This document shows positions 1 to 54,912 of a DNA stretch of 64,000 nucleotides, in pieces (position 1 is the stretch's first letter; each line of letters starts with the position of its first letter). Origin of the DNA: Klebsiella phage Miami; sequence record MT701590.1; one strand, 5' to 3'. The notes below the pieces were generated by a model. The model was not told where the DNA came from, made no database searches, and saw only the letters and a list, made by a program, of their open reading frames with translations. The position numbers and the translations under genes were made by a program.

Positions 1-627
1 TTTGAATATCTTAATATTCCTGGATCTTCCGGATCGGTTAGTTCCGCCGGAGGCGTGTTTGGAAAGGTCGTGTGTAAAACGGCCAGTTTTAGTTCTTCCG
101 TAATTCATAAAGGGTCATTTACGACATTGAATTTGTTAGGTAAAACTTACGTTAGGGATGTTGGGGCGGCAGCACTGGTCGTTTCAGGAGGAAAAAATAA
201 AATAGAGGATTCCTATATTTCTGGGAATGCAACTTTAGACGGCGGCGGAACAATATTTAACACGGACATAGCCGGACCCGCATCCTTTACTGGATCGTGG
301 GCGTCGAGAATGAATAGAGTTAATGGAAATTACTCTATTGGATCTTCCTCAGCTGAGACGTACGCGTCAGAACATAGTAACATTTTCGTAAACGGTCAGC
401 TTTCAATCAATGGATACGCTAAAGCATCGTTAGAAAAAATGACCGTGGGTAACATCTACTTCAATGTTACTGGCGGATGGTGTACTTTAGAAAAAATAAA
501 GATGGCCGGGGCTTTAAGTGGAAACCCAATAAGCGCAACAAATATTCCTGGGTACGGGTCGGTAACAACCAATCCTTCTACCGGGGCGATCTATGTTTAT
601 AAATCCACAGGATGGACGGAATTATAA
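1..627 (+). CDS. tail fiber protein, C-terminal fragment (5' end lies upstream of window)
   Basis: Frame of ORF 55..627 has no stop back to nt 1, so the CDS enters from upstream. Gly/Ser/Asn/Thr-rich, beta-rich composition is typical of distal fiber or receptor-binding domains. It sits directly upstream of another tail fiber gene. Confidence 0.5.
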   Translation, partial: FEYLNIPGSSGSVSSAGGVFGKVVCKTASFSSSVIHKGSFTTLNLLGKTYVRDVGAAALVVSGGKNKIEDSYISGNATLDGGGTIFNTDIAGPASFTGSWASRMNRVNGNYSIGSSSAETYASEHSNIFVNGQLSINGYAKASLEKMTVGNIYFNVTGGWCTLEKIKMAGALSGNPISATNIPGYGSVTTNPSTGAIYVYKSTGWTEL

Positions 628-644
628 ATTTAAAATCAATCTTA

Positions 645-668
645 TTTCCCTGACGGACGTCAGGGAAA
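645..668 (+). terminator. stem-loop (tttccctgac-ggac-gtcagggaaa) between fiber genes; weak terminator or RNA structure
   Basis: 10-bp inverted repeat read directly from the sequence. No clear U-tract follows. Confidence 0.3.
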
Positions 669-692
669 TGGCTATTAAAGAAAGGCTAGAAC

Positions 693-3600
693 ATGACCAC
701 GCCAACCGATAAAGATATACCGAGTAACTCGGTACAAGATAGACTGTATAACGCCGAGAAATTTGATGAGTTTATGAACTCGGATAATGTCAATTACACT
801 GACCGTAAAGGAAAAAGCAGATGGACATTATCGGGTATTAGACAAGCCGTCCAAAATTGGATGGATACTCTGAAAACCAGTTCAGGGGCTTCAGCTATCG
901 GCTACGGTACGAGCACAGTCGCCGATGAAATCGCTAAGACGGTCAAGCAGCAGATCACTTTCTCAACCGGCGGCACACTGAATACACCGTTAGATCGTAT
1001 AAGTGACGGAACGTATTTGTATTACTGGACCGGTGTATTCCCGAAACAAATCCCGGCGAATTCAACAATTGATTCAACCGGCGGCATGGGAGTTGGTGCG
1101 TGGGCCGCGGATACCGATTCATTATTGAGAAAAAAATTATCAGATGAGGGCGGTTCTCAGCTTATTTTCGGGTTAGGAAACATAATCGGGACAGTCGTCG
1201 AGATCCTGAATTCCACAGAATCCCCCCAGATATATCAGGCAAATGGGTTTTATGCGCAGAATGACGGCGGCGAAGGCGTTTGGGTAGCGACGGGGAATAC
1301 CTCTCCTGAATTATCAGGTAAACACGTGCCATCAAGCGCGGCGGTATACAACGCAAATGGCGTCGAATATCAACTGAAAGTACAATCTGGATTTGAATTA
1401 TCAGCAAAAGCTAACGGATCTAAGCCAGTCAGCAATGTCGATGCTCAAACCGAAGATTTCGTATGTCTTGGTGAAGTAGTGAACGGTATCACGTCGCGTG
1501 TCAAAACTATGAGCAATGACGACGATTTTTGGACGTACCTAAAAGTCACCATACCGTCCGAGACCCCATTACGTATCGGGAAAAGCAGTATCAAGGCTTA
1601 TTCGCGCTTGACGTTAGATTTTCAGCAGGCTTCAATTTACGTCAGGCCGAGCCCGTCAAAACGCCAGGAAGTCACCGGCGTTTATATGAACGCCATCGAG
1701 CGCGGTATTGAAGATATCAAGGCGATATCCGCAAAGTATGCCGGTAAGACGTCTTACTTTAATATGACCGTTTCGAATTTTCACATCATCGGTGGGAAGT
1801 TCTTCGGCGACCATAACACTGATAAGGGGGTTGCGAATTGCAGTACCGGCACTGGATTGCTCACTTACAATTTAGAAGAGTCCAGCGTCACTAATACGTG
1901 GTTCCAGGGATTTGCTTGTGGGCGTCAATACGTCCGCACCGTGTCCGGTTATTATTTCGATAACCTTGGGCGCAAAATAACGGGCACGCTGGTTCCAGAA
2001 GTTGCTTCTTCAGCCACTGGTTCTTATGAGGGCGTTAAGGAATGGTCCGTCACGGCTTATGGCTGCCGTTACATGTACCTGAGAACTGTCAGTAACTGGG
2101 CGAGATTCGAGAACTGCAAATTCGGTACCTACGCTGACTGGGGGTCAAGCCCTGATGGCAACCAGTGCGAATACTTCATTGAGAACCGAGGAGCCGGTGT
2201 AGTATTCAGTGGCGGTGTGATTGAAGCCAATACCTCGGCCGCCAACCCAACAAAAGGCTTTGTGAGGGACTTCGCCCGCGGGTGTACGTTCACAGGTATC
2301 TACTACGAGAACTGCCTGTCGGCTGGGTGGGTCATCACCACTCCTGAAAAGAGCCAGTACAACCGAGCTAATGGACTGTTCCTTACAGCTATTGGGAGTC
2401 AGTATACTGGATCGTCGAAGGGCGCCCCCCTGGTTAAATTTGAACCGGGATACTTTGGCTCATACGACGCTACTACGGGGCTGTATAAAACAGGTGGTTG
2501 GGAAACAAATTACCAGTATTCGGGTGGGGTTAACACCTGGTCTGTAGGTCAACCTGTTTTAGATTCCGGGGCTTTCCCTCACGGTGGGTATGACTTTAAA
2601 TATGGGACTTACGGGATCCATTATTCTGGAGCTGCGCCGGATGTAGACTCGCTTCGGGACACCCCTGAAGGTAATGAGTTTCTGTCTCAATATGGATTAC
2701 TGGTTAACTCCGGAGTTTTGTTATTCCCTGAATTATCCCCGGCATATCACTCTAACATCGTAGTTTGGTATAAAGACCTGACGGGTAACTTTGACCCAAG
2801 GGGTATTGTTGTTGGTGATTTCGACAATAACAACGTGTCTGATGGGACCAGCAATGCGCTCTACCGTACTAATGGGTTTAATTACTATGACTACGGTAAT
2901 GGGTATAAGGCGGCCATTGTGCCCTACGTTAACCCGCGCCCACTCGATAACAGGATGACAACGTCTGCCGGACGCAAGTTAAAAATTACTGTAACCAGTG
3001 ACGCTCCTATTATCCTGAAAAGCATTCAGGCGTTCGTAGGGGGGACTCCGATATTCCCGCCAGCCGTTAAGGAATATGTGCCTCGTTCACAACGAGACCG
3101 CATATGGGGTACTATGACTGGTGCCTCTACGAATTCTGGTGCGTATTACGGTCCACTGATTGGCGGCGGTATCTTCCGACCAGGTGATGTAGTGTTACCT
3201 TTTACGCCGTTCCAGAACCCCTTGTTGCTGGATCCGCTAACGTACACAGATATTTCCGGGACCTTTGGCTCGAGCGCAGAAATCGTTACTATTACCGGTG
3301 GTGCGACCTGGGGAGCTGGATTATCCGGTAAAACCATCGCCCTTACAGTAGTAGACCAAGACGCAACCCATGGCTGGACAACCGTCTCGGTACCGTCTGA
3401 CAGTTTGGCATACATCTTAACCGGGATGCCGGTTAACATAACGGCAAACTCCTCCGGGGGGGGTACAGGGTTTATAAATATTGTACGCAGGATTATTAAT
3501 TCCGATGGGACTCTGAGCAATAATTACGTGTTGTCCGGTACCCTTGGGGCCCCTGGTACGACCCTAACAGCGTCAACAAACGGGAGTTATACATTGCGCT

Positions 3601-4334
3601 CTGGGGTGTCTTCGACGCTTTCTGGTGTTTCTGGTTCGTTCAGTTCTGGATCGTGGTTAGGTTCGTCATCTGGAGATTTGCGCGTAGGGTATGGGGCTTC
3701 ATCTTCTAGTACGCGTCAAATACGTTACTACTACAACGGCACGGATGTGTCCGCCGGGATAGGGTCTAATGGTCTTACCTCCTTGTACTTAACAGGTACA
3801 GGCGGGATCACCCTCAATGGGTCTTTACTAACAAGTACAAGCTACTCATTTGGTAGTGCGTCGGCATACCCAGCGAACATCTACTCTCAAAACGCCGTAA
3901 CAGTAGTCTCTGACGAGAACTACAAAACCGACATAGTAGAGTTAGAAGATGCTGAGATTGAGTGCGCTAAAGCCTGCGCCAAGTTGTATCGCCGCTATAA
4001 GTTGAAAACAGCCGTAGCTTTAAAAGGTGAAGATGGGGCCAGATACCATGTGGGTACCATTGCTCAACTTGTTATGCAGGCTTTCACTGACGCTGGTCTG
4101 GACTGGACGAAGTACGGGATCATTACTTATGAGTCTTGGGAAGATTCCGATGCAGTTTTTGAAACTGTGGGTGCTACCTATGATGAAGAAGGTAATGAGT
4201 TAACTCCTGAAACTACTGTAGAAGTTACTCCTGCTAAAAAGGCCGGGGAAATCTACATGGTTCGCTACGACGAATTTAATAGTTTCGTTATGGCTGGACT
4301 AGAAGCGCGGATTCAAGACCTAGAGATTAAGTGA
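693..4334 (+). CDS. long tail fiber / tailspike protein with C-terminal intramolecular chaperone (peptidase S74-like) domain
   Basis: 1213 aa. N-terminus MTTPTDKDIPSNS..DRLYNAEKFDEF..YTDRKGKSR is homologous to the N-terminus of the minus-strand ORF 6753..9323. The C-terminal ~150 aa (DIVELEDAEIECAKACAKLYRRYKLK..GEDGARYHVG..TYESWED) matches the autoproteolytic chaperone domain of T5 pb1-type L-shaped fibers and endosialidases. Confidence 0.85.
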   Translation: MTTPTDKDIPSNSVQDRLYNAEKFDEFMNSDNVNYTDRKGKSRWTLSGIRQAVQNWMDTLKTSSGASAIGYGTSTVADEIAKTVKQQITFSTGGTLNTPLDRISDGTYLYYWTGVFPKQIPANSTIDSTGGMGVGAWAADTDSLLRKKLSDEGGSQLIFGLGNIIGTVVEILNSTESPQIYQANGFYAQNDGGEGVWVATGNTSPELSGKHVPSSAAVYNANGVEYQLKVQSGFELSAKANGSKPVSNVDAQTEDFVCLGEVVNGITSRVKTMSNDDDFWTYLKVTIPSETPLRIGKSSIKAYSRLTLDFQQASIYVRPSPSKRQEVTGVYMNAIERGIEDIKAISAKYAGKTSYFNMTVSNFHIIGGKFFGDHNTDKGVANCSTGTGLLTYNLEESSVTNTWFQGFACGRQYVRTVSGYYFDNLGRKITGTLVPEVASSATGSYEGVKEWSVTAYGCRYMYLRTVSNWARFENCKFGTYADWGSSPDGNQCEYFIENRGAGVVFSGGVIEANTSAANPTKGFVRDFARGCTFTGIYYENCLSAGWVITTPEKSQYNRANGLFLTAIGSQYTGSSKGAPLVKFEPGYFGSYDATTGLYKTGGWETNYQYSGGVNTWSVGQPVLDSGAFPHGGYDFKYGTYGIHYSGAAPDVDSLRDTPEGNEFLSQYGLLVNSGVLLFPELSPAYHSNIVVWYKDLTGNFDPRGIVVGDFDNNNVSDGTSNALYRTNGFNYYDYGNGYKAAIVPYVNPRPLDNRMTTSAGRKLKITVTSDAPIILKSIQAFVGGTPIFPPAVKEYVPRSQRDRIWGTMTGASTNSGAYYGPLIGGGIFRPGDVVLPFTPFQNPLLLDPLTYTDISGTFGSSAEIVTITGGATWGAGLSGKTIALTVVDQDATHGWTTVSVPSDSLAYILTGMPVNITANSSGGGTGFINIVRRIINSDGTLSNNYVLSGTLGAPGTTLTASTNGSYTLRSGVSSTLSGVSGSFSSGSWLGSSSGDLRVGYGASSSSTRQIRYYYNGTDVSAGIGSNGLTSLYLTGTGGITLNGSLLTSTSYSFGSASAYPANIYSQNAVTVVSDENYKTDIVELEDAEIECAKACAKLYRRYKLKTAVALKGEDGARYHVGTIAQLVMQAFTDAGLDWTKYGIITYESWEDSDAVFETVGATYDEEGNELTPETTVEVTPAKKAGEIYMVRYDEFNSFVMAGLEARIQDLEIK

Positions 4335-4443
4335 TTAATAACTCACAATTGATGTGGGGACCGGTGACGAGTGATAGAATCTGTAAGAGGTGACATCGTT
4401 ACAGATTTTTTGTTACCGCACCGGTCGATGTTATGAAAGGATC

Positions 4444-5247
4444 ATGGTTTTATCACACACAGCAGGTACTTATATGCATAATCGTAGTGTTAAGCGTGCT
4501 AACCGCGACGCTCGTCGCGAAGCAAGACGTCAAGATAAGTCCCAAAGTAGTCAACTGAAACTGGTGGACAACAATTTCAGTGAAGTAAACCTACCTCTTG
4601 CAAAAGCTGATCGGAGTAAGATTGAGCCGAAAACCCCAATGCAACAAAAATATTGGGATGGGTTACACGCCCACGATGTCGTCATCGGTATTGGTGAAGC
4701 GGGTAGCGGTAAAACGTTCCTCCCGACTTGTTACGCTGCAGAACGTCTGCTGGCTAAAGACGTGGAAAAGATTATCGTTACACGACCAGTCCTACAGGCC
4801 GATGAAGATCTGGGTTTTCTCCCCGGGGATGTTAATGAGAAATTCGCACCTTACTTCCGACCGGTCTACGATATCTTACTGAAGCGCCTGGGTGGTGGAA
4901 TGCTTAACTATTGCATGAAGCCTGGCGTGGAGAAAGTTGAAGTCGCCCCCTTTGCTTTTATGAGAGGTCGTACTTTTTCTGACTCAGTAGTGATTCTTGA
5001 CGAAGCGCAAAACGTTACAGTTATGCAGATGAAAATGTTCATCACTCGTATGGGTGAGAACACTACGGTAATCATCAACGGCGACCTTACCCAGTGCGAT
5101 CTTCCTAAAGGAGTTAAATCCGGTCTGGAAGATCTGCTGGAACGCATTGAACGAGATCCTGAAAATGGATTCCCGATTTATCGTTTCAATGCGGCTGATA
5201 GTGTGCGGTCAGAGATTTGTTCCAAAGCCCTGAAACTTTATAAGTAA
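4444..5247 (+). CDS. phoH: PhoH-like ATPase
   Basis: Walker A GEAGSGKTF, then LGFLPGD and PYFRPVYD motifs typical of PhoH. Start taken at the ATG with AAAGGA Shine-Dalgarno (MVLSHT...) rather than the upstream GTG of the ORF track. Confidence 0.85.
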   Translation: MVLSHTAGTYMHNRSVKRANRDARREARRQDKSQSSQLKLVDNNFSEVNLPLAKADRSKIEPKTPMQQKYWDGLHAHDVVIGIGEAGSGKTFLPTCYAAERLLAKDVEKIIVTRPVLQADEDLGFLPGDVNEKFAPYFRPVYDILLKRLGGGMLNYCMKPGVEKVEVAPFAFMRGRTFSDSVVILDEAQNVTVMQMKMFITRMGENTTVIINGDLTQCDLPKGVKSGLEDLLERIERDPENGFPIYRFNAADSVRSEICSKALKLYK

Positions 5248-24506: not shown

Positions 24507-24998
24507 ATGAAAAAGATCATGATCGCTATTGCTCTTCTGTCTACCACAGCATTCGCCAACGCCGCTTCTGAGCAGGTATGGAACGCGTCTCTCACCAACA
24601 GCCAAATCACCTGCGGCATCGACTACACCGGCGGCACCCAGGTTGAAGGCGGTATTCTTACCGCTAACGAAAGCGGGACGAATACATCCAAAGCGATTTC
24701 CTTCACCCTGATCGCGAACACGCAAAACGTCAACTGGCAGATCACCGAAGCCAAACTGGTTCAAAACACCGGCCGGTTTGATTTCAGCGATAACCTGCTG
24801 AGTGTAAACGATAAGACCAAAACGTCGGTCTACATCAACGATCAGGAATACGCGTGGCCTGACGCCGCTCAAGCTAAAGCGTTGGCCAGCAATTCTCGCG
24901 TGATCAAACTGGCGCCGAAAATCAATCTGGAACAGTCGGTCTTCCCGATTGGCCAAACAAGGATCGCTGGGAAAATTGTGATTACGTGCACGCAGTAA
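24507..24998 (+). CDS. secreted fimbrial-subunit-like protein (163 aa)
   Basis: Signal peptide MKKIMIAIALLSTTAFANA. Ser/Thr/Asn-rich beta protein with two Cys. Markedly higher GC and host-like high-expression codons. Confidence 0.45.
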   Translation: MKKIMIAIALLSTTAFANAASEQVWNASLTNSQITCGIDYTGGTQVEGGILTANESGTNTSKAISFTLIANTQNVNWQITEAKLVQNTGRFDFSDNLLSVNDKTKTSVYINDQEYAWPDAAQAKALASNSRVIKLAPKINLEQSVFPIGQTRIAGKIVITCTQ

Positions 24999-25013
24999 AT
25001 TAGGTTTACTTAT

Positions 25014-25049
25014 TTTAACCTACCGACCGGTTGGTCGGTAGGTTAAAAA
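25014..25049 (+). terminator. terminator-like palindrome aacctaccgacc..ggtcggtaggtt
   Basis: 12-bp stem directly after the stop codon. Confidence 0.55.
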
Positions 25050-25069
25050 CTTTTAAGTAAGGATATGAA

Positions 25070-26089
25070 ATGGGGCGGCTACCAACGAAATCTAAACATG
25101 AAATATACCTTGAAAGAGTTAAATTAAAACATAATAATTTTTATGATTACTCTAAAACTATCTTTACCGGGTCTCTGAACACAGTAAAAATAATTTGTCC
25201 TATTCACGGTGAATTCGAACAACGAGCATCCAAACATTTAGAGGGGTGTGGGTGTAAACAATGTGGAACCGACCGACAGCGAAAGGCTCTAAATAAAACA
25301 ACGGAAGATTTCATTAAAGAAGCCAAGGCAATTCACGGAGAAACATACGACTACTCACAAACGGTTTACTCAAATGGCCACTTCCCGGTAAAAATAATTT
25401 GCAGAACTCACGGTGTATTCTATCAGACGCCCTCCAATCACATTGGAGCGCATAAACATGGGTGTCAAAAATGTGTCTATGATAGCTTACGACTCGGATC
25501 TAAAATATTCATTGATCGGGCGAAAGAAGTGCATGGCGATAGGTACGATTATTCTAAAGTCGTTTACAATAAAAACTCTGAAGAGGTCGTCATCGTTTGT
25601 AAAGAACATGGGGAGTTCAAACAAACACCAAATACCCACACTGTCGACAAATCAGGGTGTCCCAGCTGTTCCAAAAAATTCACCAGAATGGTTCCGCTAA
25701 CGGTTTACTTTATAGTAAGCGAGGACCTTAAATTCATCAAGATAGGTGTTACACGATCTTTAGTAGGTAGATTAAAAACTCTCTTCTCTGCACGCCACAC
25801 CAAATTAATAGGATTCAATTCTTTCTTTTACACTAGAAAGTTTTATTCTGATGGTTACGAGGCTGGAGAAGCGGAGCGTAGTTTCAAAAATATGTTTTCA
25901 GAGTATAACGCCGGTTTCCTTATTGAAGGCTACTCTGGATCAACAGAATGGTTCAAGCTTAACCAAATAATTCTTAACTGGATAAAGGAGAATATAGACG
26001 ATCAACTCGATTTAACAGCACCGCCCTCTAACGCACGGTTAGGTTTAGACTCGATTCCTGGACAACCCGCATCCAAGGCAAGATTGTGA
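25070..26089 (+). CDS. T5orf172 (GIY-YIG-like) domain protein with three N-terminal Cys/His zinc-binding repeats
   Basis: Three ~50-aa repeats of ..HGxxYDYSxxxYxxxxxxVxIICxxHGxFxQxxxxHxxxxGCxxC. C-terminus YFIVSEDLKFIKIGVT...GSTEWFKL matches the T5orf172 signature (..GxxEWF). AT-rich gene. Confidence 0.55.
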   Translation: MGRLPTKSKHEIYLERVKLKHNNFYDYSKTIFTGSLNTVKIICPIHGEFEQRASKHLEGCGCKQCGTDRQRKALNKTTEDFIKEAKAIHGETYDYSQTVYSNGHFPVKIICRTHGVFYQTPSNHIGAHKHGCQKCVYDSLRLGSKIFIDRAKEVHGDRYDYSKVVYNKNSEEVVIVCKEHGEFKQTPNTHTVDKSGCPSCSKKFTRMVPLTVYFIVSEDLKFIKIGVTRSLVGRLKTLFSARHTKLIGFNSFFYTRKFYSDGYEAGEAERSFKNMFSEYNAGFLIEGYSGSTEWFKLNQIILNWIKENIDDQLDLTAPPSNARLGLDSIPGQPASKARL

Positions 26090-35168: not shown

Positions 35169-35465
35169 ATGGCTCGTAAACCTTCTACCGTAGGCGAGAT
35201 TATTAAGAAAGAGTATCTCGAACCGATGAACATGAGTATGATGGAACTCTGCCGTCGGACTCATTCAAGCAATGCCGCTATTTCCCGTCTGCTTAGCGGG
35301 AATACTCGTCTGAGTATTGAGATGGCGTTTAAACTCGCTAAGCTCTTTAACACAACTGAAGAGTTTTGGTTGAATCTTCAACGTCAAGTAGATCTTTACG
35401 AAGCTAAGCGAGATAAAGAGCTTAAGGCGACGTTAAAGAAAATTGTTCCCATTAGTAAGGTGTGA
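35169..35465 (+). CDS. HigA-like / XRE-family HTH protein (solo antitoxin-like)
   Basis: ..ELCRRTHSSNAAISRLLSGNTRLSIEMAFKLAKLFNTTEEFWLNLQRQVDLYEA matches the HigA/VapI antidote HTH, including the EFWLNLQ..YDL tail. No RelE/HigB-like toxin gene is adjacent. Confidence 0.55.
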   Translation: MARKPSTVGEIIKKEYLEPMNMSMMELCRRTHSSNAAISRLLSGNTRLSIEMAFKLAKLFNTTEEFWLNLQRQVDLYEAKRDKELKATLKKIVPISKV

Positions 35466-35812
35466 TAATGAGTCCGTTTAATATTTATTTTTCTGCTTCT
35501 CCCCTGGGGTCCGCTATAGGGTTAGCGATCTTGCTAGTCCTTGGGTGGTTTTTTATTTACCGCAGCCCTACAGCGATTAATCAAGTTATCGGTAAACAGA
35601 AACGCGTCTACGTTGTTTTGTTCGTCCTGGTATTTTTTATCGGGAGTTGTTTTAATATAGGTACTCGGCAAGCTGAGCTTAATCGTTCTCAGTTCGACGC
35701 CCAGATGAACACTGAGATCATCAAGAAATCACCTACCTCCACGGAAGTCTTCGATGCCCGTGGTAACTTTAATCAAGCGTTAGATAAAGCAAAAAAGGAA
35801 AATGAACAATGA
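35462..35812 (+). CDS. small membrane protein (116 aa)
   Basis: Two TM helices. Confidence 0.45.
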   Translation: MIMSPFNIYFSASPLGSAIGLAILLVLGWFFIYRSPTAINQVIGKQKRVYVVLFVLVFFIGSCFNIGTRQAELNRSQFDAQMNTEIIKKSPTSTEVFDARGNFNQALDKAKKENEQ

Positions 35813-36675
35813 AGAAACTTTTCTCAATTGTGGGATTAGTGATGATTGCAACTTTACTCTCTGGATGCGGTCAAATCGTAGAACCTGGTTTTAAAGCCAA
35901 GTTCCTTTCTTCCAGTGGTTACAGTAACGAGATCAAGGAGCCGGGTAAATATCAAGTTTGGTGGGGCGAGAAGTTGATTAAACTTGATACCTCGACCAAA
36001 GCGATATCCATTCCTCTCACTGTTAAGATGGCGGATGAAATGGATTTATCCTTTAGCGTTAACTTCCGTACCCGAGTCGGGGGTAACGATAAAGTCCTGA
36101 ACGCCATGTTTAACGACATTCGGCCTCAGGATACTGATAAGGGTCTGATCATCTCCTTAGATCAGGTATTCTCGGTTTACGGTAATGACGTAGTGAGTAA
36201 CGTTGCTCGTTCCGTAGTGGGGAAATACAAAGTCAGTGAGGTCTCTAAAAACTACGACACAATCAACGAGCAGCTTCAGGCTAAGTTAATCGAAGCGATG
36301 AAGAACAACCCGCTGGAAGTGTCCAACGTGACCGTCGCTAACATTACCTGGCCTAAAGTCATTACTGACGCCATCGAAAAGCAACAAGAACGTGAACTGG
36401 CAATCAAGACAGAAGAAAACCAGCAAGCTATAGAAATGGTCAAACGCACTAACCAGCTCAAACTCGCCGAAGCTGACCGAGAGATCGAACTCACTCGAGC
36501 GAGAACCCTGCGAGATCAGAACGCCATTACCGCCGATGGATTAAGTGATAAACTCATCGCTTATAAAGCGTTAGAGGTTCAACAATCCATGACAGATAAC
36601 AAGTCGGCGGTGTTTGTCCCTTATGAAGCGTTCAATGCACCCGGATTGTCCAACCGAATCTTTAGTGCCAAATAA
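35809..36675 (+). CDS. SPFH/band-7 (prohibitin-like) domain lipoprotein
   Basis: Lipobox LLSGC after the signal peptide. The C-terminal half has the Ala/Glu/Arg-rich coiled region typical of SPFH proteins (..ERELAIKTEENQQAIEMVKRTNQLKLAEADREIELTRARTLRDQ..). Confidence 0.5.
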   Translation: MKKLFSIVGLVMIATLLSGCGQIVEPGFKAKFLSSSGYSNEIKEPGKYQVWWGEKLIKLDTSTKAISIPLTVKMADEMDLSFSVNFRTRVGGNDKVLNAMFNDIRPQDTDKGLIISLDQVFSVYGNDVVSNVARSVVGKYKVSEVSKNYDTINEQLQAKLIEAMKNNPLEVSNVTVANITWPKVITDAIEKQQERELAIKTEENQQAIEMVKRTNQLKLAEADREIELTRARTLRDQNAITADGLSDKLIAYKALEVQQSMTDNKSAVFVPYEAFNAPGLSNRIFSAK

Positions 36676-36684
36676 TTAACAATT

Positions 36685-36712
36685 AATCTGGTTGGATAAG
36701 TCCAACCAGATT
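36685..36712 (+). terminator. terminator-like hairpin aatctggttgga-taag-tccaaccagatt
   Basis: 12-bp perfect stem after the stop codon. Confidence 0.55.
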
Positions 36713-36729
36713 ACTTTTACTTTAGGAGA

Positions 36730-37323
36730 ATGATGATGATCAACTGCTTAGAACCTAACGAATTCGTTCAGTTTAAAGAACAGTGGGATAAATATCTCGA
36801 GGAGGGTCTTCCCGGACTCGATGAAAGAATGAAGGGTCCGATGCTGATCCTGAACGCAATACCTGGGGTAGCGACCCGCTTTTGTTGTTCCGGTCATACC
36901 TTTGAAGAAAGGTTATCATCCCACCCGACCAAAGCGTATTCTCGAGTGCAGAAAAGGAACTTCATTTTTGTCGTTGAAGAAGGTCATGCCGATATTTTCT
37001 TTGCGTTTGAGATACTCTTCAAATTATTGAACAAAGACGAGTTTAGTTTTTGCCGGCCTTCTTTAGAAACCACTCTGCTCAAGAAAAACTTTGGTGAGTC
37101 GGAAACCTATCCGGTTTGGGTATTCGAAATGAATTGGGTTTACGAACTCACCGAGGAAGAAAAAATAAAGGGAAGGGATAAGACCCAGAAAGAACTTTGG
37201 GAGAAACTCCTCAGAGGACTGTTCATGATCACCGATCCAAAGGAACGCCATAAACACCGGGATATTCTGACCGAACCCTATTTCGACCAACCAGGACTTA
37301 TTAGGAAAACACATAATGTTTGA
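36730..37323 (+). CDS. hypothetical protein (approx. 195 aa; start may be the 2nd or 3rd ATG)
   Basis: Conserved leader. Overlaps the nadR start. Confidence 0.5.
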   Translation: MMMINCLEPNEFVQFKEQWDKYLEEGLPGLDERMKGPMLILNAIPGVATRFCCSGHTFEERLSSHPTKAYSRVQKRNFIFVVEEGHADIFFAFEILFKLLNKDEFSFCRPSLETTLLKKNFGESETYPVWVFEMNWVYELTEEEKIKGRDKTQKELWEKLLRGLFMITDPKERHKHRDILTEPYFDQPGLIRKTHNV

Positions 37324-38425
37324 TATCGGCATCGTCGTTGGTAAATTTGCCCCTCTCACCCAGGGGCACATCAACCTCATCACCCAAGCCTCCCTCCAGG
37401 CTAAGAAAGTTATCGTTGTGTTAAGTCATGACAGTCGCTGGTTAGCGCAACAATGTCCTCGTGATCAGAAGGCGTTGACGTTCACTAACCGTCTTCGTTG
37501 GTTACAGCAGCATTACGCCGATTCTGACCACATTGATATTAAATATATCATCGAAGATGACATCCCGGAATTCCCCAACGGATGGAGCGCTTACTGTAAC
37601 CTCCTCAGGAAGATCTACACTGAGGAACAGCACAAGAACTATAAAGGAATCGGATCAGTCGACAACACTCGTCGGATTGCTCAAACCGTGGCCATTTTCA
37701 GTAGTGAAATCGATTACGATAAAGGTTACGAGGAGCATCTTCCTGAAGTCAGTCACGTCGTCGTTGATGCGCATCGTACAGCGGTTCCCATTAGTGCGAC
37801 TAAAATTCGTGAGAATCTTTACGCCAACTGGGAATACCTCCCTTCTATTGTTCGTAAGGACTACACCAAACGGATTGTCATCCTCGGCCAGGAATCTTGC
37901 GGTAAAAGCGTCATGGTCAAGAATCTGGCTAAGATGTTTAATACGTCCTGGGTAGAGGAGTACGGTCGGACGTATTGTGAAACTGAGCTCTGTGGTTCAG
38001 AATCGACACTCCGTAGTGATGATTACCCGATCATCGCTTATCGCCATAAGGAACTGGAAATCCAAGCAATGCGTTCGGCTAACCGCATTTGCATCGTGGA
38101 TACGAACGCATTCATTACCGAGTACTACCATCGGTTGTATGAAGGCAAACCTAATCGTATCGTCTCTGCTATAGCAGCTGAGGAAAACTACGATCTGGTC
38201 ATCGTGCTCGAACCTACGGTGGAATGGGTTGATGACGGCCTTCGTAGTAATCCCGAAAGACAACGGACGACCGAATTATTTAACCTCATGAGTCTGGAGT
38301 TCCCTAACCAGTTCCCGGAAGGAAGAACGTTCCATATTTCTTCCCCTGATTACAAAGTTAGGTTCGACCAGGCTTACGAAATTATCAAAACCTTCACTCA
38401 GCGTGTTAACTCAGGTGAATTTTAA
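37316..38425 (+). CDS. nadR: NadR-type bifunctional NMN adenylyltransferase / ribosylnicotinamide kinase (no N-terminal HTH)
   Basis: N-terminus GIVVGKFAPLTQGHINLITQA (nucleotidyltransferase H/TxGH motif, ISATKIR). C-terminal half has VILGQESCGKSVMVKNLAKMFNTSWVEEYGR (Walker A of the ribosylnicotinamide kinase domain). Collinear with E. coli NadR residues ~60-410. Confidence 0.8.
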   Translation: MFDIGIVVGKFAPLTQGHINLITQASLQAKKVIVVLSHDSRWLAQQCPRDQKALTFTNRLRWLQQHYADSDHIDIKYIIEDDIPEFPNGWSAYCNLLRKIYTEEQHKNYKGIGSVDNTRRIAQTVAIFSSEIDYDKGYEEHLPEVSHVVVDAHRTAVPISATKIRENLYANWEYLPSIVRKDYTKRIVILGQESCGKSVMVKNLAKMFNTSWVEEYGRTYCETELCGSESTLRSDDYPIIAYRHKELEIQAMRSANRICIVDTNAFITEYYHRLYEGKPNRIVSAIAAEENYDLVIVLEPTVEWVDDGLRSNPERQRTTELFNLMSLEFPNQFPEGRTFHISSPDYKVRFDQAYEIIKTFTQRVNSGEF

Positions 38426-39121
38426 ATGAAAGAACTTTTTAGCGTAATCTATACTGATTTCCAGAGCGGATGGAGTCGTAAGGAATGGCTGTGGTTAGTC
38501 GTAGCCGTCTCGGCTGTTGTAGTTGGGAGTATTTCCGCTTCGCCACTGGAATTCTGGGCGGGGATATTCAACGTCGTCTGCGTTATTCTTGTTGCTAAAG
38601 GCCGACTCTCCAATTACTATTGGGGGCTATTAGGGGTGGTTCTCTACGCGATCGTTTCCTACAAGCAACAACTCTACGGCAACATGGCGCTTAACGTCAT
38701 TTACTTCGGATTCCAATTCTGGGGTATTTACGAATGGCGTAAAACACTGCTGAATAAGACTGATGCTGGCGTTGACGTATCCGTTAGGCGATTGTCACTC
38801 CTTCAGTTCCTTCAGATGACGTTCGTTGTTTTGGCAGGGACCTTTGCAGTAAGCTTGTTCCTTCGTCATATCGGGGATAGTTCACCCGTATTAGATGCGT
38901 TTACGATGGTAGCGAGCTTAATCGCTATGGGCTTGATGGTTAAACAGTATTCCGAACAATGGTTACTCTGGATACTGGTCGATATCGCTTCTATTTACAT
39001 GTGGGTCATTCCTGCTTTAGACCAGCCTGGTTCTTGGTCCATGGTAGCAATGTGGACGGTCATCACCGGTAACGCGCTGTACGGCGCTTACATGTGGTTT
39101 GTTGTTAAGATAAATAAATAA
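38426..39121 (+). CDS. pnuC: nicotinamide riboside transporter PnuC
   Basis: 231 aa, 7-8 TM helices. Motifs ..FWAGIFNVVCVILVAKGRLSNYYWGL..YGNMALNVIYFGFQFWGIYEW.. typical of PnuC. Immediately downstream of nadR. Confidence 0.75.
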   Translation: MKELFSVIYTDFQSGWSRKEWLWLVVAVSAVVVGSISASPLEFWAGIFNVVCVILVAKGRLSNYYWGLLGVVLYAIVSYKQQLYGNMALNVIYFGFQFWGIYEWRKTLLNKTDAGVDVSVRRLSLLQFLQMTFVVLAGTFAVSLFLRHIGDSSPVLDAFTMVASLIAMGLMVKQYSEQWLLWILVDIASIYMWVIPALDQPGSWSMVAMWTVITGNALYGAYMWFVVKINK

Positions 39122-39150
39122 ATAATTCCGACAATAGAGGATAAAATATC

Positions 39151-39852
39151 ATGCGTAAGAACTATGACATTAATGCCACTTCAGACGACGTCTTCTTTAA
39201 TCACTCTAAATCATTTAAGCTGGTGAGAAAAGCGATTAAGAAGATCGGTTCAGCAAAATGGGAGGGGGTTTTTAGTGACCCTACCCAAAATGCTGCCCGT
39301 GGGTATGATGAAGAGCGATTTGATAACGTCCTCCGCGCCATGTATTCTGAAGATTTGGCGAGGACCTTGGATTTTGCTATTCATCGCAACGAGATTGCTC
39401 GAATCGATATCGCCATTATGATGATGAAACCTGAAACCAAAATCGATTACCATTTTAGGCACGACATCCCCTATCGTCAATGGGGATTTCTTAGTTTCCG
39501 ATCTGATTTAACAATTACCAGCGCGGATCAGCTCGACAACAATCCCTTTTTCTTCACTACGCTCTTGCGGGAGCTCAAAAGAGCGGGGATTTACGATTAC
39601 AACGTGAACGCGATCAGCGAGCTTTATCAACTTGTACATCTGGCCTCTATCGCGCTGTCGTACACTGGTTTGAGTGGATTGGGGGAATCGGATTCCTACC
39701 AGAACGCAATCGGTGTCGCCATGCAGGTAATTCGTCGTTGGGGCGCGGGAGAGAGTTCTGAAGTTATGAGTGATCTTGATCGAGCCACTCAGATTTGGTC
39801 GCCTTCGGAATCGGACTATGTTAAGTTTTACGAAGAATTGATCATCGGATAA
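39151..39852 (+). CDS. hypothetical protein (233 aa)
   Basis: Co-oriented ORF. Confidence 0.5.
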   Translation: MRKNYDINATSDDVFFNHSKSFKLVRKAIKKIGSAKWEGVFSDPTQNAARGYDEERFDNVLRAMYSEDLARTLDFAIHRNEIARIDIAIMMMKPETKIDYHFRHDIPYRQWGFLSFRSDLTITSADQLDNNPFFFTTLLRELKRAGIYDYNVNAISELYQLVHLASIALSYTGLSGLGESDSYQNAIGVAMQVIRRWGAGESSEVMSDLDRATQIWSPSESDYVKFYEELIIG

Positions 39853-39951
39853 CGAAGCGTAATTAAATTTAATAGTATGGTCAGTCGACCTAGGTGAGAG
39901 TGATCTTGTGGGTTACTCTCATTCCTTTCGTAAATATCGGAGAAATAAAAA

Positions 39952-40467
39952 ATGGCTAAAGAAAACGTTGTTCGTATTCCACTGTATAATTTAGGTAATC
40001 TTTCTTGCGTAGGGTATCGAGAAGGGTGCGGGTATAACGTTAAGATTTATTGGGGCGATTATGTGCTGGCCTCTAAACCTAATCTCACTCAAGCGCTCGA
40101 CTTCGCTTATATCGGGGTTCGGCTCTTCTCCCCGATCCACAGTGAATGGTTAACCAACGATCTGCGTTTAGCTATTTGTGAATCGTTGATAAAAGCCCGT
40201 TTATTAATTGATGGCAATCATAGCGTGGAGCGTTCTTCTGTTCTTTCAGAGGGATTCCTTAAGCATTGGAAAACAGGTGAATCGGGGGTAGAGTATTATC
40301 TGGAAGTACGTCTTGCTAGAGACCCGGGTAAAATAGAAGACGACATCGTTCAAGTCACCTTAAAGTACGACAACGATGGGTGCAGCTTCACACATAGCTT
40401 CAAGAAATACGCTTCCGTTTTCAACTATAAAGAACATTTAGGTCTTTTCAAACAAGTTACCCGCTGA
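39952..40467 (+). CDS. hypothetical protein (171 aa)
   Basis: Co-oriented ORF. Confidence 0.5.
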   Translation: MAKENVVRIPLYNLGNLSCVGYREGCGYNVKIYWGDYVLASKPNLTQALDFAYIGVRLFSPIHSEWLTNDLRLAICESLIKARLLIDGNHSVERSSVLSEGFLKHWKTGESGVEYYLEVRLARDPGKIEDDIVQVTLKYDNDGCSFTHSFKKYASVFNYKEHLGLFKQVTR

Positions 40468-46123: not shown

Positions 46124-46798
46124 ATGGGTGTAAATTCTAGAACGATGTCGCTTTCTTACTACAAGACAAAAACGACAGATGAAAAAGACGAGTTTCCTAT
46201 TGACTCCGATATCAATACTGTCATCTTTGATTTCGAAACCGCTTCGCTTGGCATTAATCCAGCGATCCTCAGTATGGGCGCGTTTGCTTTCGATCGGTTT
46301 AGTTTAGAAACCACACAACGTCGAATGAAGAATCCTCAGGATAAGGATACGTTTTATCGTAATCTTAATCTAAAGGAATCGTTCTTCTTGGGTTTCGACA
46401 TCTCCAAAGAAACCGGAGAATGGCATTACAAAAAGAACGGAACTAACCTCGGTAAGATGTTAGAAAACGAGGTTTCTCCCTACGCGGCCTTACGGGAATT
46501 CAAACGCTTCATCATGTCTTATCGCCGTAAGACCGAGGACATGGTTATTCTGATTCGTCGCACTCACGCAGATTACATTTGGTTAGAGAATCTGTGTAAG
46601 CGATTGGATACAGAGATGTTCCTCAGGCACAACGACGTGATTGACATCCCAAGCATCGTGTTTGCTAAAACAGGTGACGTCAAAGGGCATTACACCCTAG
46701 AGGAAAGTTTGTTTGAAGGCCTTGTAAGTCATCATGCGCTGACCGATTGTTATTTGGATGCGCTTCGCATTTGTTCGCTGTACCAAGAAACGAAGTAA
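46124..46798 (+). CDS. DEDDh (DnaQ-like) 3'-5' exonuclease
   Basis: Exo I motif VIFDFETASLG, and Exo III motif HHALTDCYLDALRI near the C-terminus. Confidence 0.6.
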   Translation: MGVNSRTMSLSYYKTKTTDEKDEFPIDSDINTVIFDFETASLGINPAILSMGAFAFDRFSLETTQRRMKNPQDKDTFYRNLNLKESFFLGFDISKETGEWHYKKNGTNLGKMLENEVSPYAALREFKRFIMSYRRKTEDMVILIRRTHADYIWLENLCKRLDTEMFLRHNDVIDIPSIVFAKTGDVKGHYTLEESLFEGLVSHHALTDCYLDALRICSLYQETK

Positions 46799-51346: not shown

Positions 51347-52570
51347 ATGTTCGAATATCTCATTCAGATAAATCAGGTTCTCTCTTCTGTTCCTATTATC
51401 GGTGGGAGTTTAGCGGTAGCCTTAGGCGGCGGGATCATTGCCGCCTTCTGGAAAGGTCCAGCGTTACTCTCGAGGATTTTTAACTCCACTGTTGTGGTTT
51501 CCTTCACTCTTAATAACTCAGGGTGGGGCAATAATACCAAGCACTACATTGCGTTTATTAAATGGTTTAACCGTTCAGATATTCTTAAGATAACGCGATC
51601 TACTGGTTACGAGGCCGTTTACGACAGCTCTGGTAAAGGGCCTAGTGTCGGCAGTCATTTATTTCGATTTAAGAATAAATGGTACTATCTCAAAATCAAA
51701 GAACTCCCTTCTACGGGAAGCGAGCGTGAGAAGAAAGAGATATGTATAAAGACGTTAGGGTGTTCTGTCAGCATTTTCGACGATCTCTTCGAGGCCTTTA
51801 AGGATAAGACAGATGACGACGGAGAACTCAAAGTAAAACGGTTCAGGGACAATCACTGGTACGACGCCTGTCTTCTCAGCAGGAGGTCGTGGGATACCGT
51901 CATCTTAAACAAAGAAAAGAAGGTGGAAATAGTCGAACTCATCGAAGAGTTTTACGCGTCGAGGGAGTGGTACCGAGAAAGAGGAATACCGTATAAACTC
52001 GTTATTGTATTGTACGGCCCGGCTGGGACGGGTAAGAGTACCGTTATCAAAGCGTTAGCACGCCTGTTTAACAAAAACCTTAACCTCATTTATCTTCACC
52101 AAATGACGGATAACACCTTCCCGGCCAGCATAGAGACGGTAGAGCAAGATTCTTTTATTGCCATAGAGGATTTTGATACGGTTTCTTCTATAGGGTCGAG
52201 GACCAAACCTAAGGAGGAGAAAGATCCGTTCCAAATAGACCTTTCAGACGGAGGATTAAACCTGACCACTGTTTTAAATACATTGGATGGGATCGCTGAA
52301 TTGAACGGTCAGGTCATCTTTATGTCCACCAATCATCTTGAAAAGATCGATAGTGCGCTGATTCGAACCGGTAGGGTAGATGCAAAAATCCATATCGGGT
52401 TTTTAGGTAAAGAAGAGGTCGGAGACTTCATTCAGATGATGTATCCCGGAACGGAAGCTGATTTGGATTTTGTTACAGAAATCTCTGGGTCGGATCTTCA
52501 GTCGTATGCGTTAGCCAACAAAAGAAATTCGGAAGGTTTCTTAAAAGAGCTTAAGGACCATTTTAAATAA
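51347..52570 (+). CDS. membrane-anchored BCS1-like AAA+ ATPase
   Basis: N-terminal TM helix (VPIIGGSLAVALGGGIIAAFW). Walker A VLYGPAGTGKST, Walker B FIAIEDFD, then GLNLTTVLNTLDGIA and RTGRVD as in BCS1-type AAA proteins. Confidence 0.65.
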   Translation: MFEYLIQINQVLSSVPIIGGSLAVALGGGIIAAFWKGPALLSRIFNSTVVVSFTLNNSGWGNNTKHYIAFIKWFNRSDILKITRSTGYEAVYDSSGKGPSVGSHLFRFKNKWYYLKIKELPSTGSEREKKEICIKTLGCSVSIFDDLFEAFKDKTDDDGELKVKRFRDNHWYDACLLSRRSWDTVILNKEKKVEIVELIEEFYASREWYRERGIPYKLVIVLYGPAGTGKSTVIKALARLFNKNLNLIYLHQMTDNTFPASIETVEQDSFIAIEDFDTVSSIGSRTKPKEEKDPFQIDLSDGGLNLTTVLNTLDGIAELNGQVIFMSTNHLEKIDSALIRTGRVDAKIHIGFLGKEEVGDFIQMMYPGTEADLDFVTEISGSDLQSYALANKRNSEGFLKELKDHFK

Positions 52571-53674: not shown

Positions 53675-53923
53675 ATGATTTATTTCGATTTAGATTTTTT
53701 ACTCGGGTCAAAAATCACGAAAGAAGAATTTAAGGAGCTATTTCCGGATGCAGATCCGGACCATCTATCCTGTTCCTCTACCGAGGAGGAAATTGATTTC
53801 GAAAATGCTTTTTGTGCGGAAGATCCTTATGATTCGGAAATCCTTCACCGATCCGTACCCATAATCGAAGGATCAAAATCAGATTTAATTTCGTCATACA
53901 AATTAGCGGAGGATGAGATATGA
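53675..53923 (+). CDS. hypothetical acidic protein (82 aa)
   Basis: Asp/Glu-rich. Confidence 0.45.
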   Translation: MIYFDLDFLLGSKITKEEFKELFPDADPDHLSCSSTEEEIDFENAFCAEDPYDSEILHRSVPIIEGSKSDLISSYKLAEDEI

Positions 53924-54912
53924 TTATTGCTTTAAAAACGTTTGTTGGTAGTAAACTGTTTGGATTAGAAACAGAGAATTCGGATACGGATATAAAGGGA
54001 ATTTATATTCCTTCTGCTAAGGATATTCTCTTACATCGTTATCACCCTGTGATCGATAAATCTTCTAATAAGGGGACTTATCGAGCCAACAAGCCGGAAG
54101 ATACAGATGAAGTCTATTTCTCTTTGGACAAATTTATCGAGCTTCTCATAAAAGCCGATACAACAGCTTTCGATATGCTGCACGCACCAGAAAGCAAAAT
54201 CCTCATCTCCACTGACATTCATCATGAGCTTTGGAGAAACCGGTCCAAGTTTTATACTAGCCGATTGGATGGTCTGTTCGGGCAGGTTATTACCGAAGCG
54301 AATACTTACGGTGTTCGGAGTATGCGAGCCGCCGCTTTAAAAGAGGTCGTTGAAATCGTTTCTTCGTGGGATGATTTTAAATTGTCGGGCTGCAGATTGG
54401 GTGGACTGATTTCTCAGCTCCCAGTCGATAACGTGTACACGCGTATAACGCGGGATGAGACACAGAGGGCCGGGTGTCAGGATTTCTATGAAATTCTAGA
54501 TCGTAAATTTCAGTACACCATCTCGGCTTTGAAATTCAAAACTGCTATTCTGGAATTATGGTCCTCCTACGGAGAAAGGGTTAAGAAGGTGGAGTTATCT
54601 GGGGGTAATGATTGGAAGGCGTTAAGCCATGCTTTCAGAATCGGATATCAGCTGTTAGATATCTATCGAGAGGGCGATTACACCTTCCCTTTAAAGCAAA
54701 GCTCTACGATTATGAAAATTAAACTCGGGGAGGTTTCAGAAGAAGAATCAAGAGAAATGCTGAATCAACTCATTTCCGATGTTAAAACTGCAGCAGGTAA
54801 ATCCGGACTTCCTACTGAAATCGATCCAGAGCCATGGTACGATTGGGTGGCAGACGTTTACGCCGGGGTAGTTAAGAAAGCTTATTTACCTAAGGGGTTT
54901 AGATTATCATGA
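53920..54912 (+). CDS. Pol-beta superfamily nucleotidyltransferase (RlaP/PF10127-like)
   Basis: N-terminus KTFVGSKLFGLETENSDTDIKGIY has the GS-x9-13-D-x-D nucleotidyltransferase motif. Confidence 0.55.
   Translation: MIIALKTFVGSKLFGLETENSDTDIKGIYIPSAKDILLHRYHPVIDKSSNKGTYRANKPEDTDEVYFSLDKFIELLIKADTTAFDMLHAPESKILISTDIHHELWRNRSKFYTSRLDGLFGQVITEANTYGVRSMRAAALKEVVEIVSSWDDFKLSGCRLGGLISQLPVDNVYTRITRDETQRAGCQDFYEILDRKFQYTISALKFKTAILELWSSYGERVKKVELSGGNDWKALSHAFRIGYQLLDIYREGDYTFPLKQSSTIMKIKLGEVSEEESREMLNQLISDVKTAAGKSGLPTEIDPEPWYDWVADVYAGVVKKAYLPKGFRLS

Follow-up and report, generated by a model that had tools for sequence, protein, structure and literature searches.

A NadR–PnuC gene pair in Klebsiella phage Miami as a probable nicotinamide riboside salvage system of the NARP3 type

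A 64,000-nucleotide stretch from Klebsiella phage Miami (sequence record MT701590.1; hereafter the window, to whose positions all coordinates refer) carries an nadR-like gene that is directly followed by a pnuC gene (Table 1). We assign a probability of about 0.8 to the reading that this locus is a nicotinamide riboside (NR) salvage pair of the NARP3 type. A preliminary description of the same DNA had proposed that a NadR without its helix-turn-helix (HTH) domain, immediately followed by PnuC, provides a route from NR through nicotinamide mononucleotide (NMN) to nicotinamide adenine dinucleotide (NAD+) that counters NAD+-cleaving (NADase) defences. The arrangement was borne out: the two open reading frames (ORFs) lie on the + strand in the order proposed, the enzyme matches its family profile, NF005988, from position 65, and the transporter passes the TIGR01528 threshold. 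The proposed route is likewise supported, by homology to the two proteins of NARP3, Bas30_86 and Bas30_87 (57% and 44% identity, respectively), by gene order and by conserved catalytic residues.

The NadR-like protein was characterized by profile and structure-database comparisons. Pfam recognized AAA_28 (6.8e-29, residues 186-323) and CTP_transf_like (5.9e-5, residues 6-166), with no match to an HTH domain. Against the NCBIfam equivalog NF005988 the protein scored 256.4 bits (cutoff 201), with an alignment that covered only profile positions 65-405 of 411; positions 1-64 are unmatched, and the N-terminal repressor HTH is therefore absent, leaving an enzyme-only NadR. Measured against the bacterial trifunctional NadR, which is defined by an HTH, an NMN adenylyltransferase (NMNAT) and a ribosylnicotinamide kinase (RNK) domain, the phage protein has no regulator domain. 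It matched PDB 9x6f (E 2.5e-139), whose sequence is identical to Bas30_86 of phage TrudiRoth, and H. influenzae NadR (1LW7, E 3.7e-53). The alignment with Bas30_86 runs end to end from residue 1. A script located the nucleotidyltransferase motifs GKFAPLTQGH (residues 9-18) and ISATKIR (159-165), the Walker A motif of the kinase, GQESCGKS (191-198), and WVDDGLR (304-310).

Residues of Bas30_86 and Bas30_87 named in the study of NARP3 (Yan et al., 2026; PMC13464706) were mapped onto the window proteins by alignment, and the mapping was verified by script. The 17 named residues of Bas30_86 comprise modelled contacts and residues that were mutated in that study, some with loss of function; 15 are identical in the window NadR, and the other two are conservative swaps. 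At site 2, which lies within the NMNAT domain, all 11 residues are identical: K10, F11, S37, E80, P84 and G89 carry the same numbers in both proteins, while F110, S112, D115, V139 and I141 of Bas30_86 correspond to F128, S130, D133, V157 and I159. At site 1, which lies within the RNK domain, K163, D164, E230 and D275 are retained as K181, D182, E248 and D293; R167 is replaced by K185 and K168 by R186.

The second protein of the pair is a clear member of the PnuC family. It scored 148.5 bits (2.5e-43) against Pfam NMN_transporter (PF04973; gathering score 27.3) and 129.1 bits against the NCBIfam equivalog TIGR01528 (cutoff 42.45), and it matched the PnuC of N. mucosa (PDB 4QTN) over residues 14-225 with an E value of 3e-33. 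Among the NR-binding residues of Bas30_87, N45 and Q94 are kept as N49 and Q97, and N180 is replaced by D186.

The two genes are tightly joined. The TAA stop codon of nadR (38423-38425) abuts the ATG of pnuC at 38426, which has an AGGTGA ribosome-binding site 8 nucleotides upstream. Comparison with the copies in phages KPN8, YC1 and BUCTxx100 gave ratios of nonsynonymous to synonymous divergence (dN/dS) of 0.014-0.066 for nadR and 0.029-0.069 for pnuC, at synonymous divergences of up to 0.32; these low values show that nadR and pnuC are not chance ORFs and are under strong purifying selection.

NARP3 is a two-gene operon, Bas30_86/Bas30_87, of the T5-like Escherichia phage TrudiRoth, with structures deposited as 9x6f/9x6h (Yan et al., Sci Adv 2026; PMC13464706). 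Bas30_86 is an HTH-less NadR-like enzyme that converts NR to NMN and then to NAD+, and Bas30_87 is a PnuC-like transporter whose dissociation constant for NR binding is approximately 0.66 uM. NAD+/NADH depleted by Sir2-HerA was restored by the two proteins jointly, and by neither singly. They also counteracted DSR1. Phage plating under attack by Sir2-HerA and DSR1 rose 10^3-10^4-fold; rescue required external NR, with a half-maximal effective concentration of 3.6-5.6 uM. The pair was sufficient by itself in E. coli, and it worked against a Klebsiella Sir2-HerA and with Klebsiella phages as well (PMC13464706).

By analogy, we infer NR transport, both enzyme activities and a counter-defence role for the pair in phage Miami. 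PnuC, predicted to be a SWEET-like trimeric inner-membrane facilitator, would let NR pass from outside into the infected cell; NadR's kinase domain would then convert NR and ATP to NMN, and the NMNAT domain would adenylate NMN to NAD+. Without the repressor HTH, this NadR presumably escapes the transcriptional feedback mediated by host NadR. With no gap between the stop codon of nadR and the start codon of pnuC, the two genes are probably co-translated, from a transcription unit that may extend from ORF197 to ORF233. Such a pair would keep NAD+ available when abortive-infection NADases (Sir2-HerA, DSR, Thoeris-type) cleave it, and could contribute to general NAD+ supply too, serving for instance the NAD-dependent DNA ligase that relatives such as KPN8 and phiKp_32 encode.

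The phage origin of the window is evident from its 92-97% nucleotide identity to the jumbo phages BUCTxx100, KPN8 and YC1 (approximately 250 kb), and it fits the tail spike, PhoH and MazG that the window also encodes. Over the 3.3 kb flagged in the preliminary description, identity is 96.8% to Stenotrophomonas phage BUCTxx100 and 92.5% to Klebsiella phage KPN8, while Klebsiella phage YC1 matches approximately 71% of this segment. The copies in these three phages are already annotated as NadR-like/ribosylnicotinamide kinase and PnuC transporter. They make up three of the five genomes of the clade in the database and share the NadR–PnuC genes as a 2.6-kb cassette. In a blastn comparison with the corresponding locus of Klebsiella phage phiKp_32, homology ends at 37262 and resumes at 39867, with 61 bp between these points in phiKp_32. 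A second, separate indel covers the membrane ORF and the SPFH gene (35445-36720), and ORF197 lies between the two. Homologues of NadR, PnuC, SPFH and ORF233 were all missing from phiKp_32 (tblastn over 250,000 of its 251,460 bp), and VB_ZK_P1 has no NadR–PnuC in the syntenic slot, genome-wide absence having been checked for phiKp_32 only. Presence or absence as an accessory element is typical of counter-defence cargo. A search for cassette-flanking repeats as a signature of mobility returned only short, chance-level matches.

Beyond this clade, homologues of NadR and PnuC were found in 791 and 812, respectively, of 50,697 phage records. The breakdown by genus is nearly identical for the two: 174 and 176 in Salmonella, 45 and 45 in Klebsiella, 38 and 38 in Escherichia, and 24 and 24 in Bacillus. 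NadR followed by PnuC is all that is common to the loci of the window, T5-like TrudiRoth and the 299-kb phage KpZh_LPS_45. In the last of these (locus L003, 6001-7212 and 7356-8045), the NadR is 64% identical to that of the window, has 403 aa, including an extension at its C-terminus, and is separated from pnuC by 143 nucleotides. The abutting junction is thus not universal.

Several points weigh against assignment of the pair to NARP3. In the window NadR, 18 aa with no counterpart in Bas30_86 are inserted into the NMNAT domain (at approximately residues 99-124). D186 of the window PnuC stands where Bas30_87 has an Asn needed for NR binding, so that the NR specificity of the window protein is presumptive. 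The cassette is missing from phiKp_32 (whole genome) and from VB_ZK_P1 (syntenic slot), and is therefore dispensable on the hosts of these phages. The NADase products ADP-ribose and nicotinamide are not substrates of the NR route, which works only with NR outside the cell (PMC13464706). Finally, homology with Bas30_86/87 is the basis for proposing that the pair acts in counter-defence in this phage, and the published work on these proteins did not test NARP3 in its native phage.

The change at position 186 raises the possibility that the substrate of PnuC has shifted, to NMN, nicotinic acid riboside or another nucleoside. The Asn that D186 replaces is one whose mutation to Ala (N180A) abolished NR binding by Bas30_87 (PMC13464706), and each of the four genomes of the lineage has the Asp; KpZh_LPS_45, Bas30_87 and the Neisseria PnuC (4QTN) have Asn. 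The Pnu family includes transporters of other vitamins, which also favours a shift. Nevertheless, the protein scores at three times the TIGR01528 cutoff, and Asp occupies the N180 column in 11 of 32 aligned PnuC-family sequences, including distant members named as NMN transporters in their source records. An Asp should still be able to hydrogen-bond the ribose hydroxyls, and the NR/NMN site residues of the partner NadR are all kept or conservatively swapped. A shifted substrate is therefore very improbable, and because Asp recurs within the family, D186 is probably a tolerated variant. Of the features that define NARP3, the trio of NR-coordinating residues is the one that the pair shares only in part.

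Alternatively, the pair may serve a large jumbo phage with a long cycle as an auxiliary metabolic module of general use, in which case any benefit under NADase attack is a by-product. Relatives encode a LigA-type NAD-dependent DNA ligase with or without the cassette (KPN8_48, DNA_ligase_aden 1.7e-32; phiKp32_1030), so their replication depends directly on NAD+. Among phages of medium and jumbo size, NadR and PnuC are common, frequently together with further genes for NAD synthesis, and the term NAD+ 'synthesis systems' has been applied to them. No defence-related family was matched in the neighbourhood: a PADLOC search with nine proteins around the locus gave no meaningful hit. The gap in PMC13464706 concerning the native phage is compatible with a general supply as well. 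Yet the homologous pair rescues phage plating specifically under NADase attack, by the three to four orders of magnitude cited above, and for an accessory element whose slot varies between near-identical genomes, conflict cargo is a better match than core metabolism. The biochemistry is common to both explanations, which are not mutually exclusive. On balance, we consider a purely general supply function unlikely and retain the NARP3 assignment.

Two side observations concern the same relatives. Annotations in the clade (noted at KPN8 211923-212885 and 176781-182647 and at phiKp_32 111851-113755) include a tubulin-like protein, split RNA-polymerase beta subunits and a chaperonin, which together suggest nucleus-forming (chimallivirus-like) jumbo phages, and also a LigA-type NAD-dependent DNA ligase; phiKp_32 carries two TnpB genes besides. 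BUCTxx100 (OR529409.1) has Stenotrophomonas maltophilia as its recorded host and is 96-97% identical here to Klebsiella/Raoultella phages, so that it either infects an uncommonly wide range of hosts or carries a questionable host label.

Table 1. Features of the nadR–pnuC locus of Klebsiella phage Miami (window positions).
Feature	Position	Strand	Description
HigA-type HTH protein	35169-35465	+	98 aa
Membrane ORF	35462-35812	+	116 aa
SPFH/Band-7 lipoprotein	35809-36675	+	288 aa; Pfam Band_7
Hairpin, terminator-like	36684-36713	+	13-bp stem, followed by a T-rich tract
ORF197 (the 195-aa ORF of the preliminary description)	36730-37323	+	197 aa if started at the first ATG, 195 aa if at the third
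nadR-like gene	37316-38425	+	369 aa; NMNAT and ribosylnicotinamide kinase domains, without HTH
NMNAT domain of NadR (HIGH-superfamily nucleotidyltransferase)	37316-37825	+	approximately residues 1-170
Ribosylnicotinamide kinase (P-loop) domain of NadR	37871-38422	+	approximately residues 186-369
pnuC, nicotinamide riboside transporter	38426-39121	+	231 aa; Pfam NMN_transporter
ORF233	39151-39852	+	233 aa; orphan, probable cassette passenger
ORF171	39952-40467	+	171 aa
Accessory cassette	37263-39866		3' end of ORF197, nadR, pnuC and ORF233; from comparison with phiKp_32

Every gene between 35169 and 40467 lies on the + strand, and the preliminary description had suggested that the upstream SPFH lipoprotein and the 195-aa ORF overlapping the nadR start might belong to the same unit. 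Both genes are as described. The SPFH protein matches Pfam Band_7 (3.4e-17; 63.5 bits, cutoff 23.6) and PHROG 200 'lipoprotein' (1e-50), and its N-terminus, MKKLFSIVGLVMIATLLSGC, contains the lipobox LSGC at residues 17-20; its dN/dS is 0-0.023. The TGA stop codon of ORF197 (37321-37323) extends past the nadR ATG at 37316, giving an overlap of 8 nucleotides: ATGTTTGA. Shared membership of one unit, on the other hand, was not supported, given the independent gain and loss of these genes in relatives and the hairpin that follows the SPFH gene.

A four-gene system, in which for example an SPFH scaffold organizes the transporter in the membrane, would account for the common strand, the close spacing and the overlap of ORF197 with nadR. 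It would also fit the locus of TrudiRoth, a T5-like Epseptimavirus, where bas30_0085 (locus L002, 3791-4735), directly upstream of Bas30_86, encodes another SPFH/Band_7 protein (Pfam 2.9e-19). This protein looks unrelated to the SPFH of the window, the two being too diverged for tblastn to connect them, so that the adjacency recurs in two lineages. Several lines of evidence argue against such a system. Bas30_86 and Bas30_87 alone suffice in E. coli. YC1 has ORF197, nadR, pnuC and ORF233 with no SPFH homologue anywhere, and phiKp_32 has ORF197 without SPFH or the pair. Both SPFH types have a far broader distribution than the pair: homologues of the window type occur in 124 phage records (Pseudomonas PAK_P3-like phages included), mostly without NadR or unlinked to it, and those of the Bas30_0085 type in 737, including T5-like IrisVonRoten, where other genes come next. 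In KVP40-like phages and in T5-like phages of Aeromonas, the SPFH genes lie unlinked to NadR. SPFH was rejected as a member of the unit on these grounds of presence/absence and distribution.

The hairpin between SPFH and ORF197 also argues for a boundary at this point. It was seen in a terminator scan, in the sequence itself and as inverted repeat I4, and consists of a perfect 13-bp stem (TAATCTGGTTGGA/TCCAACCAGATTA) with a 4-nucleotide loop and a T-rich tail, 9 nucleotides past the SPFH stop codon and at the right-hand edge of the indel that carries the membrane ORF and SPFH. It is a probable terminator-like boundary between an SPFH unit and an ORF197-nadR-pnuC-ORF233 unit. Moreover, the overlap of ORF197 with nadR is not kept in KPN8 or YC1. 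A four-gene system is thus barely credible; we judge the SPFH gene to be a neighbour outside the module, carried on an indel cassette of its own, and treat its adjacency to NadR–PnuC in two lineages as a lead and not as evidence of shared function.

ORF197 behaves as a flanking core gene of the phage clade, apparently outside the NAD module. It is 93-94% identical in phiKp_32 and VB_ZK_P1, which lack NadR–PnuC in the slot, and 72-74% identical in KPN8 and YC1. It is present without the pair in the metagenomic relative L008 too, and is absent beside NadR–PnuC in the T5-like phage and in KpZh_LPS_45. Its sole family match is PHROG 7413 (unknown function), and a large protein database yielded three homologues. 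An AlphaFold2 model reached a mean confidence (pLDDT) of 51, and Foldseek against the PDB returned nothing at E <0.001.

Downstream of the pair, ORF233 was considered as a third component and rejected, because a distant homologue (33-35% identity) occupies the same slot in L008, without NadR–PnuC. The phage collection contains it in the three cassette-bearing genomes and in no others, and eight homologues were found among 5.8 billion proteins; one of 73% identity follows NadR–PnuC in the sequence designated L007. Searches of Pfam, PHROG, PADLOC and NCBIfam gave no match for ORF233, and its AlphaFold2 model was unusable (pLDDT 45.7). Its dN/dS of 0.15-0.81 indicates weaker constraint. We judge it to be a cassette passenger and not an obligate partner of NadR–PnuC. 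As a separate observation, an invariant core of ORF233 (PFFFTTLLRELKR..IYDY and NxIGV..VIRRW) can be recognized, and diverged alleles fill the slot between ORF197 and ORF171. Because relatives gain and lose SPFH and ORF197 independently of NadR–PnuC, the functional unit is best described as the two-gene pair.

Taken together, the Asp variant, ORF233 and the SPFH gene could be read as signs that the jumbo-phage pair is a form of NARP3 with an altered function and not simply an orthologue, with an affinity or substrate shifted by the change from Asn to Asp, ORF233 as a third component and a link to SPFH at the membrane. As pointers to such a variant these features go no further than co-location, and we consider it decidedly unlikely. 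Orthology of the pair to NARP3 remains the favoured reading.

Other searches of the window returned little that bears on the locus. No Rfam family, and so no NAD+ riboswitch or other regulatory RNA, reached its gathering score in the window, and near the locus only a chance-level sRNA match (E 0.1) was seen. A scan for sigma-70 promoters found fewer sites than in shuffled sequence and is hence uninformative. No further NAD genes were present among the 29 window ORFs scanned (nine at the locus and the 20 largest others), and the window contains no tRNAs.

Several other genes of the window were recorded. The HigA-family antitoxin-like HTH protein upstream of the membrane ORF scored 86 bits against TIGR02607 (cutoff 47.7) and matched PHROG 1381 'plasmid antitoxin'. 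It has no adjacent HigB-like toxin gene, lies downstream of a metallophosphoesterase gene and is kept in phiKp_32, KPN8 and YC1; a lone phage antitoxin of this kind could neutralize a host toxin-antitoxin defence. Relative to KPN8, the window has an insertion of approximately 1.1 kb (24948-26059) with an ORF of 339 aa (25070-26089, +) that matches DUF723, a treble-clef zinc finger and T5orf172/MUG113 (GIY-YIG-like), and this insertion is probably a selfish element of the homing-endonuclease type. The tail spike (693-4334, +; 1213 aa) combines Tail_spike_N with a C-terminal Peptidase_S74 chaperone domain, and megablast finds nothing in KPN8, collinear elsewhere, that matches positions 1-4453. 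This points to an exchanged receptor-binding module and probably to specificity for another capsule or host. Also encoded are an AAA ATPase with a BCS1_N-like N-terminus (51347-52570, +), an RlaP-type (RNA-repair-associated) nucleotidyltransferase (53920-54912, +) and an Rv2179c-like 3'-5' exoribonuclease (46124-46798, +).

The locus adds little to what is known of NARP3, but it is of practical use. Near-isogenic variants occur naturally in this clade of jumbo phages: KPN8, YC1, BUCTxx100 and the window phage carry the cassette, and phiKp_32 does not. Such presence/absence variants are usable for a test of NARP3 in a native context, which the study of Bas30_86/87 could not make; their practical value is modest. 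The isolation hosts of these phages are Klebsiella or its relatives, in which Sir2-HerA is known to restrict phages, and the locus shows that cargo of the NARP3 type occurs in large phages. Relatives with tubulin-like and split RNA-polymerase genes are of the type in which the DNA is believed to be protected from nucleases, and defences that act on metabolism, NAD+ depletion among them, may therefore be of greater importance to them.

The preliminary description had presented the NadR–PnuC route as a distinct third solution to NAD+ depletion. The route itself is real, as NARP3, but it is not new: the possibility of a phage NadR–PnuC was anticipated by Iyer et al. (2022), Osterman et al. (2024) proposed phage NadR–PnuC operons as a likely further NAD+ reconstitution pathway, a 2024 survey listed pnuC and nadR among the NAD genes of jumbo phages, and the activity was shown in 2026 (Yan et al., 2026). 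Judged by its sequence, the pair in the window is an orthologue of this known and named system, and the finding is correct but already known.

Comparison with known systems places the pair closest to NARP3. In both, nadR precedes pnuC on the same strand, adjacent and with an abutting junction; the enzyme has NMNAT and RNK domains and no HTH; and the genes are phage-encoded in an accessory slot, with a host range that includes Enterobacteriaceae. The two differ in that the window pair resides on a jumbo phage of approximately 250 kb and the Bas30 pair on a T5-like siphovirus of approximately 114 kb, and in that the window pair has the 18-aa NMNAT insertion, K and R in place of R167 and K168, Asp at N180 and the orphan ORF233 alongside. 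With the bacterial NadR and PnuC salvage of Haemophilus influenzae, Salmonella and E. coli (1LW7, 8x7f, 4QTN) the pair shares the two protein families and the chemistry of NR uptake, NR kinase and NMN adenylyltransferase; unlike the bacterial proteins, it is phage-encoded, its NadR has no HTH and its genes lie in one cassette, whereas the E. coli loci are separate. NARP1 and NARP2 (Osterman et al., 2024) resemble it in outcome: NAD+ is rebuilt in the infected cell by the phage, which thereby evades defences that deplete NAD+. Both of these reuse NADase products, NARP1 (Adps and Namat) starting from ADP-ribose and nicotinamide and NARP2 (Nampt/NadV and NMNAT, as in vibriophage KVP40) from nicotinamide and phosphoribosyl pyrophosphate, and neither a Nampt-like or phosphoribosyltransferase domain nor an Adps/Namat pair was found in the nine locus ORFs or the 20 largest other ORFs of the window. 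The NadR–PnuC route, in contrast, includes a transporter and draws on NR from outside the cell.

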